DNA from: Octopus vulgaris
Lineage: Eukaryota
Direction of reading: 5' to 3'
Assembly: GCA_951406725.2 (NCBI GenBank)
Contig: OX597821.1
Location: forward strand, 91,016,001 to 91,080,000
DNA: 64,000 bases
Part shown: piece by piece, positions 3,995 through 61,946 of the stretch
How positions within the stretch are numbered: the first letter of the stretch is position 1
Layout: each line of letters begins with the position of its first letter
The notes under the pieces: model-generated
Databases searched by the model: none
Told to the model about the DNA's origin: nothing
Seen by the model: the letters and a program-made list of their open reading frames with translations, nothing else
Made by a program: the position numbers and the translations under genes

Positions 3995-4037
3995 TTACAG
4001 TTGAAAAGGTCTCAAATGACTGAAACCGGTACTGGAA
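3995..4037 (+). ncRNA. Type I hammerhead ribozyme motif, U3-A8 core variant
   Basis: uuaCAG-UUGAAAA-GGUC ucaaau GACU-GAA-ACCGGU-A/CUGgaa: stems I and II, palindromic stem III, GUA triplet. About 50 nt upstream of (TA)n. Confidence 0.7.
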
Positions 4038-4087
4038 TGTTCTTTATAAAATTATTTTAGCATTTTCTATCTTGACTTGTTTTTTCA

Positions 4088-4208
4088 TATATATATATAT
4101 ATATATATATATATATATATATATATATATATATATATATATATATATATATATATATATATATATATATATATATATATATATATATATATATATATAT
4201 ATATATAT
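4088..4208. repeat. (TA)n microsatellite
   Basis: About 60 perfect TA units. Confidence 0.98.
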
Positions 4209-4209
4209 T

Positions 4210-4624
4210 GGCGCAGGAGTGGCTGTGTGGTAAGTAGCTTGTTTACCAACCACACGGTTCCGGGTTCAGTCCCACTGCGTGGCACCTTGGACAAGTGTCT
4301 TCTACTCTAGCCTCGGGCCGACCAAAGCCTTGTCAGTGGATTTGGTAGACGGAAACTGAAATAAGCCCGTCGTATATATGTATATATATATATATATGTG
4401 TGTGTGTGTTTGTGTTCCTGTGTTTGTCCCCTTCCAACATTGCTTGACAACCGATGCTGGTGTGCTTACATCCCCGTCACTTAGCGGTTTTGCAAAAGAG
4501 ACCGATAGAATAAGTACTGGGCTTACAAAAGAATAAGTCCCGGGGTCGAGTTGCTCGATTAAAGGCGGTGCTCCAGCATGGCCGCAGTCAAATGACTGAA
4601 ACAAGTAAAAGAGTAAAGAGAGTA
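4210..4624 (+). mobile_element. SINE family A (tRNA-derived head, CORE-like ccttgggcaag motif, internal TA/TG microsatellite, (AAGAGT)n tail)
   Basis: ggcgcaggagtggctgtgtggt (A-box-like), gggttcagtccc (B-box-like); about 14 near-identical copies in the window. Confidence 0.92.
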
Positions 4625-5026
4625 TATATATATATACACTTCTAACCACTCAAGCACCAGCAGACAGAGCGATCCATTACTATCTTATATAATACAGTAT
4701 CACAATAAAATTCTATTATGTTCATGACCTATGCAAAAAACTGTTATAATAAATTAGTATGCAATTAAATTTTATCGAAATCCTCATAAAAGAGCACAAT
4801 ATGCATTGCACTAAACTAAAAACTAGCCCTGTTTGATTATAAAATCAATAAAATTTTAAAAACTTCCGTCTCACATTCTCTTATTAATTATTCTTTCTAT
4901 GATTATCCATCTCCTCATTACGTGCTCCACATTACATGTTTTATACACACACACACACACACATATATATATAGAGAGAGAGACAGATAGGTGGATATAT
5001 ATATATATATCAATTACATTTTAATA

Positions 5027-58900: not shown

Positions 58901-60069
58901 TAGCAGTTGAAGGTGAACTTGTAGTGATAGTGTTGGTATTTTCTTTCGTGGATGGTTGAAGGCTTTGCGACGATATCGCTGTTGTTGGTGGTGGTGGTGG
59001 TTGTGGCGGTGCTTGCATTCATGCTAACATTTGCACCTGCTTGTGTGAGACTTCACCCCTCCTTCCCTCCTTCATGAAGCTGTGGTGAAGGCAGTGTAGG
59101 GAAATCAACGTCAAACGAGTTGCTAAGGAGACCAGCATTCGTTACAAAACCGTCTTCATGGTTTGAAGACGCCATCCTCAAGACAAAAATAGTTAAGAAA
59201 GCCCAAAACAAATTCACAAAATCGGGGAAAACGCCACGCAGGGCAGGTTTCCCGTGTAAACAACTTGCACAATCGAATCTATTAGTTGTTGCACAACTTT
59301 TACAAAAAAAATATTATAAAATGCACAACTTTTGAAGGCAATAAAAAGCAAACTTACTACGAGTCGATGTGACTATCGTCCGTCCATAAGATAGATAGAT
59401 AGACATATAAATATGCATGCATATATTTGTATATATATATATATATATATAGATAGATAGATAGATAGATAGATAGATAGATAGATAGATGATAGATATG
59501 TATGTATGCATGTGTGTTTGTGCGCCTGTACATGTATGTGCGTATATATATGTATTATGTATATATATATATATATATATATATACACACATTAGACTAG
59601 AAGTTAACTTCTTGTGGTCATTCGGCATGCTAGAAACAACACCCAGATTCCGTCAAATCACAGTCCATTACAGGTGGAAGAGCACACTGCTAAATTAGTT
59701 CAAAACAGTCTTCTTCAAATTGTGTCTGCCATGACAAGAACGCTTTCTATTATAAACCAAGGTTTAACAAGAACTCAACAGCAACAACGTGTGTGTGCCC
59801 GTGTGCGTGTGCGTTTGTTTATTTGTGAATGTGTGTGTGTGTGTGTGTGTGTGTGTGTGTGTGTGTGTGTGTGTGTGTGTGTTCGTGTGGGTGTATGTTG
59901 CGTATAACAGAGGAAATTGTAACTTCAGTGTAGTTGCACCTGACAGAAAAAGCAGCCTTAACTATCTCAACTCAATCACATCCTTTATATATATACATAT
60001 ATATAATTCTTTAATTTAAATTGTTTCTTATTCAAAGCTGCGGTCATGCTGGGGCACCACTGTTGACTG

Positions 60070-60510
60070 TGTTACAACCATTATTTGAAACCTCCTCTGA
60101 TATATGGCATTTGGTGAATGGGGGAGTTTGATGCTGCTGCCCTCATCTATGTTTGCTGCCGTGAAATAGGCTCATTTGGAACCCTTGACATGAGGAGATC
60201 CAGTTTTGATTTGAAGATACCTACATCCACACCAAGCAGGTCATTCAGGCATTTTAGAACGATATTGAAGAGCTGTGGGCCCTTGTTGCAGTATCGGATC
60301 TTGTATTTGATGGTGATGCTGAGATCTTTGGCACTATGCAGTGGCTCCCCGTTCTGCTGCTTGTGTAACTTTCAATGTCAGTGTTTTGATACAGGGCCTT
60401 CCTGGATTTTCCAGATGTATATCACATCATAGGTTTCCCGCCTTCGTTTTGGGGAGAAGAGTTTTAATTCTTTCAGTTTTTCTCTGTAGCTGATACGCTG
60501 TATTGAGACG
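60070..60510 (-). pseudogene. CR1-like LINE 3' fragment
   Basis: LKLFSPKRRRETYDVIYIWKI.EG...RTGSHCIVPKIS...FKSKLDLLMSRVPNEP, typical of CR1 C-termini. Confidence 0.75.
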
Positions 60511-60997
60511 ATTTTCTTCGTGTAGCTTCGTTGGATCGCATCGAGTTCCGCACTTAATTTTAAATTGTATGGTGACCATGGTTGGAAGTAGTATGTGTGT
60601 AACAGAAAAGCGCATTAGATAATGTGACTCTAGTTACACTGTGTCATCACAGCGAAGTGGATAGGAGAATACTCTCTTCGATATACAAAAGGAAATGTTG
60701 TCACGACGGAAGAGCTTTCATGATAAATCGGCTCAGTTAATGCTGACCTCAGGTTAACAAGCAACAGATAATTTCCAAGCCACTACGTCAATGATTTTCA
60801 AACTCGCTTCCTATATCAGCCCACTCCATTTCAAATGTCTTTCAGGTGACGTGCCAGCGATGATAGATATACATGTATGTGTGTCTAAACGTATACATGT
60901 ATGTGTATACATACATGTACATATGTATATATATATATATATATATGGACCAAATTTTTTCTTAAGGAAAAATATACGTTCAAATAAGTAAAACATA

Positions 60998-61032
60998 ATA
61001 TCATGAATATCGATAGCGAAACCGGTCGATAT
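60998..61032 (+). ncRNA. Hammerhead motif, A3-U8 variant, in a ~130-bp element between two (TA)n tracts
   Basis: AUAUC-AUGAAUA-ucgauagc-GAA-ACCGGU-C/GAUAU; perfect 5-bp stem I, GUC triplet, weak stem II. Confidence 0.55.
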
Positions 61033-61946
61033 ATCAAAAATTATATTAAAACTATGTAAGTGTGCGTATTTTCCTTTATATATATATATATATATATATA
61101 TATATATATATATATATTCGTACACAGATGCATGCATAGAAACAAAAAAGAATATATACCTTTTAATAGCGGCATGACAAACATTCGCAATAATACATCA
61201 ATAGTTACATAAAAGTAATTATATTTTCCCTTTCTTTCTATAAAAAATATAATAGAACTTACGTGCAATATAGCGAAAATATCCCAAAATTTCGATATAT
61301 ATACATATATTTATGTCATTGTTTAGTAAATGTGAATCCAGTTCATTAATTATTATCTGTATAATGACGAAAGTTCTGTAGTTATATTAAAACATCAACA
61401 ATAGAGTAGAGTGAAGTATGAAGAACATTTGAAGTTTTGCAATATTACTTAAGCTTAGCATAAGGAATTTAATGACAAAATCTCAGCTACATAAACCATT
61501 TATGGAGAGTGAGTAAAATATATTATAAGAATACTTTGCAGTATATTTTTCTTAACTCATTTAATAACGTCTGAAATATCCTACAAATATATTATTTTAA
61601 CCACATTTGGTAGGAAGATAAGAGAGAAGAACTATAAATTTCTATTACTACCGTTAAATTAGGATAGCCAAAACTTGATGTGTTTCTTATTCAAAACCGG
61701 AAAAGTAAGTTATACACTGTCAGTACATAATTTGTAAAGGTTTCTGTTTTCATAAAAGTTTCTAAAGTAAGAACAGCGGCTATGCTACGATTTCAAAATA
61801 CAGTGACGTCTGCAGAAAAGCTAAGTCCAGTAATAACTTTTCAAGCTAAGAATAGGGCGTTTTATTCTGAAATGTCAAGCACGTTGGTAATATATTAAGG
61901 AGAGTAAGTAATCCATCTACAACGAATGACTTTCTTAACAATATAA

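Follow-up and report, generated by a model that had tools for sequence, protein, structure and literature searches.

The twelve hammerhead-like motifs in this window, a 64,000-nt stretch of Octopus vulgaris DNA (assembly GCA_951406725.2, contig OX597821.1, positions 91,016,001–91,080,000 of the forward strand), are very probably the hammerhead-bearing ends of six families of Penelope-like elements (PLEs) and of four short families without an ORF, all lodged in (TA)n. All 12 type I hammerhead-like motifs that a preliminary description had placed at 10 loci are present at their positions. The same description proposed several distinct families of (TA)n-targeting ribozyme retroelements, which holds for the six PLE and four short families, except that these are not a new class: the elements are truncated ends of known clades. 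All ten loci belong to repeat families, with 149–2,380 first-look candidates each in the 2.8-Gb genome (B 1,135; F 2,195; G 2,380; C 1,457; A 1,676; C2 1,813; H 2,081; E 1,405). The features are as follows.

3847..4086, + strand: family B, 5'-truncated pseudo-LTR (pLTR) end between two TA tracts
3995–4037, + strand: family B hammerhead; box 1 at 4001, U3-A8 core, palindromic stem III ACCGGU, predicted cleavage after 4031
8509..8725, − strand: family F, part of a ~490-nt non-coding unit in partial tandem (retrozyme-like), cut short within the ribozyme
8637, − strand: family F copy; box 1 absent (5' half missing), GAAA, 12-nt palindrome and predicted cleavage site 8642 kept
8786..9059, − strand: family B2, an older relative of B (72% identical)
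~8840–8880, − strand: family B2 hammerhead; box 1 at 8874, predicted cleavage 8846, U3-A8 core
21599..21784, − strand: family G, pLTR end of a Hydra-type element; box 1 at 21770, predicted cleavage base 21720
21945..22140, + strand: family C, short (~215 nt) element; canonical core CUGACGA, ACGU palindrome
21997 locus, + strand: family C hammerhead; box 1 at 22001, predicted cleavage after 22027
36233..36580, − strand: family A, tail-bearing arm of a head-to-head pair; pLTR with hammerhead plus ~155-nt tail; inverted repeat I2
Ribozyme of this tail-bearing arm, − strand: box 1 at 36509, predicted cleavage 36437
36588..36780, + strand: family A, tail-less arm
36654–36736, + strand: hammerhead of the tail-less arm; box 1 at 36659, long stem II, ACAUAUGU palindrome, predicted cleavage after 36731
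37790..37856, − strand: family D, tail-less inverted arm; closed stem III hairpin, box 1 at 37851, predicted cleavage 37813
37858..37996, + strand: family D, tail-bearing arm (70-nt tail); box 1 at 37866, predicted cleavage 37904
49894..50129, + strand: family C2, fixed-length ~235-nt element, TA to TA; box 1 at 50000, predicted cleavage 50027
50186..51148, + strand: family H, 3' UTR and pLTR of a Neptune/Nematis-type element
51023–51067, + strand: family H hammerhead; box 1 at 51029, U3-A8 core, predicted cleavage after 51061
60945..61077, + strand: family E, pLTR end of a Neptune/Nematis-type element; box 1 at 61003, predicted cleavage after 61027

Six of these elements (3995, 8842, 21716, 36432/36654, 51023 and 60998) are 5'-truncated pLTR ends of PLEs, and extension in the 5' direction reached a reverse transcriptase (RT) and/or a C-terminal GIY-YIG domain upstream in longer copies of these 6/10 elements. 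The family A RT carries DKT and YRDD, with a C-terminal GIY-YIG in L107; this RT had no Pfam match, and the GIY-YIG scored 20.2, below the Pfam cut-off of 22.6. Both domains are present in family E (L209, L210) and in family H (L211, an RT plus GIY-YIG ORF with one frameshift, together with an inverted pLTR piece), with RVT_1 E values of 1.5e-7 and 3.3e-5, respectively, and GIY-YIG scores exceeding the Pfam cut-off. By tblastn to natural ORFs, an RT and a GIY-YIG with a CxCX5C linker lie upstream in family G (L348, L360, L362), a Neptune/Nematis-type GIY-YIG in family B (L042, L043) and a GIY-YIG in family B2 (L402, L407). Every autonomous-family ORF copy examined carries frameshifts or stops. 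In family A the forward pLTR and tail continue into the beginning of the ORF (pLTR-tail-ATG; L421, L426), so that the ~155-nt tail is the 5' leader of the ORF in full elements, i.e. the start of the next unit; a pLTR also lies 3' of the ORF in L107, which places pLTRs on both sides of the ORF in this one family. Families B, B2, E and H we take to be nearer Neptune than Nematis. All family clade labels rest on motifs quoted in the available text of PMC8557442.

The other four elements (8637, 21997, 37804/37861 and 49995) represent short families, and no ORF was found joined to C, C2, D or F elements at 25–55 loci per family. Family F (33% GC, longest Met-ORF 40 aa) has a period of 477–496 nt in 8 loci and was observed solely as partial tandems with one complete ribozyme each; this ~490-nt partial tandem, together with the coding sequence upstream of six elements, bears out the proposed tie to PLEs and retrozymes. 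Family D is very young, with ~140-nt copies that are 99–100% identical, and occurs at 4 loci in 400 kb of held-out DNA (40 × 10 kb at round-number positions); copies of family B are 96–98% identical. No DNA similarity between the short families and the five autonomous pLTRs was found, and a pattern search for a longer family D parent gave 0 matches. One candidate for a full family D element, L106 with two copies 3.7 kb apart, proved to be a duplicated segment with no PLE ORF. Families C, C2, D and F behave like PLE derivatives and not like autonomous members. Since no ORF parent was found, we infer from shared anatomy that they are moved in trans by Penelope proteins.

TA targeting proved to be a property of whole families. 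Among 205 copies (the window's own are counted, as are some pairs with each of their arms and a single segmental duplicate), 3' ends lie within 20 nt of TA4+ in 151 and within 170 nt in 195, directly or after a tail, compared with 4.7% and 19.6% of random positions; young intact copies are over-represented in this set because the query sequences stopped at the TA boundary in the window and each search gave the best 40 copies. Copies end within 4 nt of TA in families H (25/25) and C2 (23/25), within 20 nt in D (24/25) and B (21/25), and within 170 nt in A (30/30 arms) and B2 (15/20), and 21/25 copies of G end at TA. In the held-out 400 kb, 23/27 homology matches lie within 21 nt of TA. Of the 8 held-out motif loci, 5 end at TA within 250 nt and 1 is cut by the end of its stretch; the remaining two (L233, L241) are related motifs far from TA, which counts against the main explanation. 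In the window itself, where every locus had been described as aimed at a TA tract about 45–130 nt downstream, nine loci end 49–133 nt before a (TA)6+ tract, and the exception is family G at 21716, whose next (TA)6+ is 979 nt away and which ends in a short, broken tract of ~7 units at ~21598–21612.

The families show two 3' end points, one with and one without the tail, and in head-to-head pairs the tail is on one arm. In family A, 19/30 tail-bearing arms have an adjacent inverted arm, and the tail is found in 0/19 of those inverted arms; family D follows the same one-arm pattern, with L098 as an exception. The 5' ends are ragged in families A and F. When copies of A, F and C were chosen by the sequence downstream of the cleavage site alone, 4/90 had a 5' end within 6 nt of the predicted site (A 2/30, F 1/30, C 1/30). 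Family D was left out of this test; a search with its 3' part gave 0 matches, very common words probably having been skipped. In family C, 19/30 copies selected on the 3' part extend as far 5' as the reference copy does, to ~100 nt upstream of the predicted cleavage site. Ribozyme cleavage probably does not set the ends of inserted copies.

Covariation, which the preliminary description had named as a test for the stems of family copies, is seen in the 3-8 core pair between families (C-G, U-A, A-U) and in the family F palindrome, whose two forms (19/41 and 14/41) are related by a double, compensatory change. Several cores deviate from the canonical one in a family-fixed manner. Family F has CCGAUGA (U4C), with box 1 in 29/32 anchored matches, and C2 has CUGUUGA (A6U), one identical A6U motif being found in 17/25 copies, with an added C3U in the window copy. 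In family E the core is A3-U8 and stem II has 2 bp, and one intact motif is common to 20/23 anchored copies; stem II is broken in the window copy by a private G>U. Other changes belong to the window copies: stem III of B2 reads ACCUGU here and ACCGGU in most relatives, and the GAAA box of family G is mutated to GGUA here and retained in relatives. Folded as monomers, the motifs did not exceed shuffles in stability (z from −1.96 to +0.39), and these energies are uninformative; a ribozyme whose stem III is palindromic is predicted to act as a dimer or with the aid of protein. Of Xenopus retrozyme dimers, 8/9 were uncleaved in vitro according to the accessible part of bioRxiv 10.64898/2026.07.22.740005.

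A different role for cleavage is possible, though not the course we would expect: it may define the mobile RNA, with monomers cut from tandem transcripts, circularised and copied from circles, as proposed for retrozymes, and this may hold for family F even if not for the autonomous families. The circularly permuted ~490-nt unit of the F partial tandems fits such a route, as does L214, a TA-flanked tandem array of 353–359-nt units with 7 hammerheads, and mussel retrozymes have demonstrated circRNAs in the available text of PMC7229834. On the other hand, A, F and C show no accumulation of 5' ends at the cleavage site, although copying from a circle would not require one, and F and C2 have been amplified despite their core changes. 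U4C reduces hammerhead activity in vitro (PMC3088659), and hammerhead mutants of an anole element nonetheless insert in vitro (PMC11167929).

It is rather doubtful that the elements lengthen or create TA tracts on insertion (by target duplication, slippage of the telomerase-related RT or repair fill-in) and do not only choose existing tracts. The perfect TA runs adjoining 3' ends are 15 units long in the median (n=151); the figure is 6 across all 961 tracts of the 400 kb, a background that itself contains tracts flanking such elements, and a length-weighted split would be expected to leave 9–12 on one side. In 19 young family D inserts the two flanks together reach a median of 31 units, with 22.7 expected (P=0.006). 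However, a preference rising with the square of tract length already yields a median of 28, post-insertion slippage fits as well, and 17/29 long TA clusters in the window are not bordered by any of these families. Over 37400–38400 contigs did not span the TA flanks and gave no reading of an empty site; summed read depth on family D, which is not a copy number, was far above that of the unique flank. The suggestion that insertions may extend TA tracts has weak and ambiguous support. A wider form of it seems unlikely: that PLEs and a swarm of 140–490-nt hammerhead mini-elements (~10^5 loci) actively lengthen the (TA)n they enter and help to build the TA richness of the genome, the mini-elements retaining their hammerhead fold, weakened cores (U4C, A6U) notwithstanding, as a handle for protein binding, and family A targeting TA although it lacks the linker Cys motif to which targeting is ascribed. 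Flanking tracts are ~1.4 times longer than a simple split predicts.

A structural descriptor (3-8 pair, stems I–III) gave 7 matches in the window, compared with a mean of 0.37 (maximum 2) in 60 TA-preserving shuffles. Because it had been written after the motifs were seen, the descriptor was rerun unchanged on the held-out DNA, where it gave 16 matches compared with 1.65 (maximum 4) in 20 shuffles. A TA tract lies within 150 nt downstream of 6/7 window matches, compared with 0.017 in shuffles, and 4/7 also have one within 150 nt upstream, so the claimed orientation toward TA stands in a weaker form, since inserts are flanked by TA on both sides. Among the Rfam matches listed for the window (150 of 307) there was no hammerhead family, and the top ones were miRNA models on TA tracts and inverted pairs. 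That the motifs are chance matches in AT-rich DNA, linked to TA by mere tract density, is refuted by the family data and has next to no probability: TA tracts do make up 3.7% of the held-out DNA, with one within 150 nt of 12% of positions, and 12 more CUGANGA...GAAA box pairs lie in the window outside the descriptor matches, but the descriptor excess, a motif conserved and covarying across whole families, and 3' junctions exactly at TA despite unrelated flanks all stand against it.

Published accounts already cover much of this anatomy, namely pLTR hammerheads, the targeting of TA, inverted copies, tails on one side and the derivation of retrozymes from Penelope elements; the (TA)n preference of these clades appears in the available text of PMC8557442. 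As far as that text goes, families B, B2, E and H resemble the EN+ PLEs of Neptune/Nematis type in a C-terminal GIY-YIG with two internal cysteines, a hammerhead in the pLTR, an inverted 5'-truncated copy, a one-sided tail and microsatellite bias; E and H share in addition a CX4CX2C linker of the CX2-5CxxC form, DKG and CCHH in the endonuclease (L210 and L211 translations), which does not split Neptune from Nematis. The A3-U8 core with 2-bp stem II of family E differs from this type. Measured against the same text, A and G resemble the Hydra clade in the absence of CCHH from the endonuclease, CxxC and CxH motifs, a canonical hammerhead and (TA)n insertion, A also in DKT and G in the CxCX5C linker. 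Family A differs from it in a long Asn-rich stretch at the linker, in RWL for RWK, and in having no CxCX5C linker in the 18/18 copies readable past the region (2/20 stop before or within it), although variants with the motif could be missed because the query was taken from a linker that lacks it. Asn-rich inserts are known in rotifer Penelope elements (PMC3846280). On its motifs, family A may be classed as Hydra-like only. It ends at TA despite lacking the linker Cys motif.

The ribozymes resemble the minimal hammerheads of metazoan PLEs (Cervera and de la Pena 2014, PMC4209133, main text) in being of type I with short stem I, palindromic stem III and U3-A8 covariation, and in occurring mostly as single copies from truncated elements and as opposite-strand pairs 100–700 bp apart; family-fixed U4C, A6U and A3-U8 were not seen in that main text, and its supplements may list them. 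Family F and the L214 array share with non-LTR retrozymes, as described in the accessible portions of PMC7229834 and bioRxiv 10.64898/2026.07.22.740005, non-coding sequence, GC below 50%, a type I hammerhead, tandem or partial-tandem organisation and coexistence with PLEs, whereas F is ~490 nt and found in partial tandems only, and C, C2 and D occur as single or head-to-head units. Those portions do not mention TA targeting of retrozymes, and the word 'microsatellite' has 0 matches in that of PMC7229834. A literature search with most subscription papers and Repbase/Dfam records outside its scope returned no paper specifically on hammerheads in cephalopod PLEs. The small additions made here are the family-fixed cores, the lack of 5'-end pile-up at the cleavage site, a Hydra-like family that ends at TA without the linker Cys motif, and the longer flanks.

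In the reading that we favor, of PLE ends and short dependents lodged in (TA)n, the GIY-YIG endonuclease likely cuts (TA)n and the RT likely copies the element RNA there. By analogy with in vitro work on an anole element (PMC11167929), the protein would cleave AT-rich DNA on both strands, and reverse transcription would begin at two internal sites of uncleaved RNA, which would give rise to the two 3' end points and to the inverted pairs with and without a tail. Most insertion events would stop early, leaving the pLTR alone, and the same PLE enzymes would move C, C2, D and F.

The value of these elements is as a test bed, with young, near-identical families at thousands of loci in which several questions about PLEs are open to direct test: whether hammerhead cleavage acts in mobility, how the endonuclease is guided to (TA)n, what gives rise to one-tailed head-to-head pairs and whether microsatellites are lengthened. 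The findings also suggest a derivation from PLEs for many of the short repeats that stand unclassified in such genomes.

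All twelve type I hammerhead motifs claimed in the preliminary description of the window (G000:C8:91016001-91080000; GC 35%, genome size 2.8 Gb) were found again, and each window locus belongs to a repeat family. A structural descriptor in which the 3-8 core pair and stems I-III are mandatory matched seven of the twelve, versus 0.37 in 60 shuffles that leave TA tracts in place. Of the five missed motifs, that at 8637 is truncated, those at 8842, 21716 and 49995 have private changes, and that at 51023 has a stem II outside the rule and was recovered with a relaxed scan. An extra CUGAUGA...GAAA box pair at 21477-21516 (minus strand) has a possible stem III and no stem I, with TA 739 nt away. 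Beyond the window, the unchanged descriptor gave 16 matches versus 1.65 in a held-out 400 kb sample (40 x 10 kb at round-number positions of the same genome); motif density in the window is about three times that of this sample.

Hammerhead families of the window: motif position, 3-8 core pair, first-look candidates in the genome (lower bounds, no copy numbers)
A: 36432/36654, C-G, 1,676
B: 3995, U-A, 1,135
B2: 8842, U-A, 1,336
C: 21997, C-G, 1,457
C2: 49995, C-G, 1,813
D: 37804/37861, C-G, 149
E: 60998, A-U, 1,405
F: 8637, C-G, 2,195
G: 21716, C-G, 2,380
H: 51023, U-A, 2,081

The elements are indeed mostly unrelated in sequence, B and B2 (72%) being the sole pair to align among the ten window queries. 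A TA tract had been described downstream of every locus; this holds for nine, with (TA)6 or longer 49-133 nt past the predicted cleavage base, and fails at 21716, where the tract is short and broken. Among 205 copies of families A-H (B2 and C2 apart; a set in which the window's own members, one duplicated segment and, for some pairs, both arms are counted), a (TA)4 or longer tract lies within 20 nt of the end in 151 and within 170 nt in 195, compared with 4.7% and 19.6% of random positions; the gap of up to 170 nt is a family-specific tail. C2 copies lie within 4 nt of TA in 23 of 25 cases, and B2, an older family, has TA within 20 nt in 7 and within 170 nt in 15 of 20 copies. In the held-out sample, 23 of 27 homology matches, at about 22 loci, end within 21 nt of TA, which extrapolates to roughly 10^5 loci genome-wide. 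For the descriptor matches there, a downstream tract within 150 nt was found in 5 of 16 (12% expected; P=0.036, matches not independent); of eight held-out loci, five have a TA end within 250 nt, one is truncated at the edge of its sampled stretch and two lack a TA end. These two are related hammerhead-like motifs, L233:2393 (plus) and L241:2224 (minus), with a U3-A8 core, an AAAUUU palindrome and a weak stem I; their downstream TA tract is more than 2 kb off, and they may represent a family with a different target or have arisen by chance.

At 8435-9059 (F/B2), 21599-22224 (G/C) and 49894-51193 (C2/H), different families adjoin each other around a shared TA tract, which suggests repeated insertion into the same tract, and 12 of the 29 long TA clusters in the window border these elements (counted from the cluster list). 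The median tract length at 3' ends is 15 units, versus 6 over all tracts and 9-12 predicted for a single flank under a length-weighted split, and in D inserts (19 of 24 examined) both flanks sum to a median of 31 versus 22.7 (P=0.006). Both excesses would follow if the elements extended TA tracts on insertion; however, a stronger preference for long tracts already yields a D flank sum of 28, and extension is possible, though less likely than not.

Other repeats in the window
37580-37765: high-copy repeat adjoining the D insert and partly tRNA-like (Rfam tRNA 28.8 bits, cut-off 29); possibly a tRNA-derived SINE
1598-2173 (minus) and 42807-43181 (plus): ORF fragments, the former with a weak DUF6428 match only; presumably akin to R4/Dong-type non-LTR elements (N-terminal part)
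44404-44841 (minus): 145-aa frame which, from its translation, we take to resemble a PIF1-type Helitron helicase

Stem covariation among family copies was seen in F: of 41 copies, 33 have a perfectly palindromic 12-nt stem III, which takes either of two forms (19 and 14) separated by a compensatory double change, possibly one ancestral event. Single-motif folding energies were no better than those of shuffles, which is unsurprising if, as predicted, the motifs need a partner. U4C, present in 29 of 32 anchored F matches, is described in PMC3088659 as a known viroid variant with lower activity in vitro, and the U3-A8 core is already described there and in PMC4209133. The commonest form of C2 carries A6U, a string absent from the accessible text of PMC3088659.

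Several families have autonomous, Penelope-like (PLE) parents. In L211, a longer H copy, an ORF with RT and GIY-YIG is interrupted by a single frameshift and accompanied by an inverted pseudo-LTR piece; the longer copies of E (L209, L210) are similar, and we assume the name "Neptune" for elements of this type. GIY-YIG exceeds the Pfam cut-off in both, and RVT_1 is above it in E (E 1.5e-7) and below it in H (E 3.3e-5); B and B2 have an upstream endonuclease of the same type. Where readable (E, H), DKG, a CX4CX2C linker and CCHH are present, the Neptune/Nematis signature as set out in PMC8557442. In A (L107) the RT has DKT and YRDD and the GIY-YIG lacks CCHH; in Pfam the latter scores 20.2 against a cut-off of 22.6 and the RT is unmatched. 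An intronless 335-aa ORF 1.3 kb from this element (L107:1718-2725, plus) looks, we presume, like a biogenic-amine GPCR. The pseudo-LTR (pLTR) and tail of A run into the ORF start at L421 and L426, which makes the A tail the start of the following unit. The CxCX5C linker motif was absent from 20 of 20 A copies (two stop early), an Asn-rich stretch standing in its place. A related RT and endonuclease, here with a CxCX5C linker, occur in G and match the Hydra clade, nearly all families of which target (TA)n (PMC8557442).

The remaining families are short. C (~215 nt) and C2 (~235 nt) span TA to TA, their 5' ends being almost fixed; D (~140 nt; 99-100% identity) occurs mostly as head-to-head pairs; F, with a non-coding unit of 490 nt (period 477-496 nt, 8 loci), has a tail that runs on into its own upstream sequence. 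None of the four aligned to the five autonomous pLTR ends tested. Dependence on PLE enzymes is suggested by their hammerheads and TA flanks and, in the case of D and F, by tails and inverted arms as well. Further C-type elements in the L069, L072 and L224 flanks carry core variants AUGUCGA, CCGUAGA and CUGUAGA, framed by an unchanged stem II and ACGU palindrome. At L214:~2050-4740 (G000:C1, near 20,002,000-20,004,700), a 353-359-nt unit carrying a canonical type I hammerhead and ACCGGU palindrome is tandemly repeated, with two copies inverted relative to five and TA at both outer ends; the array is a retrozyme with PLE-like insertion anatomy.

Copies show TA-flanked inserts, two 3' end points and inverted pairs, and in A and F their 5' ends are ragged. 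An inverted arm adjoins 19 of 30 tail-bearing A arms and never bears a tail itself (0/19). When copies were picked solely via sequence downstream of the predicted cleavage site, the 5' end lay within 6 nt of that site in 2/30 (A), 1/30 (F) and 1/30 (C). A 5' ends fall at -132 to -155 in 10/30 and further upstream in only 4/30. The RT template would appear to be uncleaved RNA, that of A possibly starting near -150. By analogy with an anole element that in vitro uses two internal RT start sites at a break, the two 3' end points may reflect two such sites at a (TA)n break; hammerhead mutants of that element keep inserting, and its ribozyme requires protein (PMC11167929). Another proposal for head-to-head pairs is self-priming on an antisense template (PMC3846280).

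Much of this anatomy has precedents in earlier reports: pLTRs, inverted copies, one-sided tails, microsatellite bias and hammerheads in Hydra and other PLEs (PMC8557442); minimal and palindromic hammerheads, single copies from truncated PLEs and opposite-strand pairs (PMC4209133); retrozymes and circRNAs in mussel (PMC7229834); and retrozymes as non-autonomous PLE derivatives (bioRxiv 10.64898/2026.07.22.740005). In an octopus, Penelope-like families are described as recently active, ribozymes being unmentioned in the main text (PMC13282606), and the families or core variants may already stand in supplements of the cited papers. The hammerhead motifs described here are real, abundant and accounted for by known biology.
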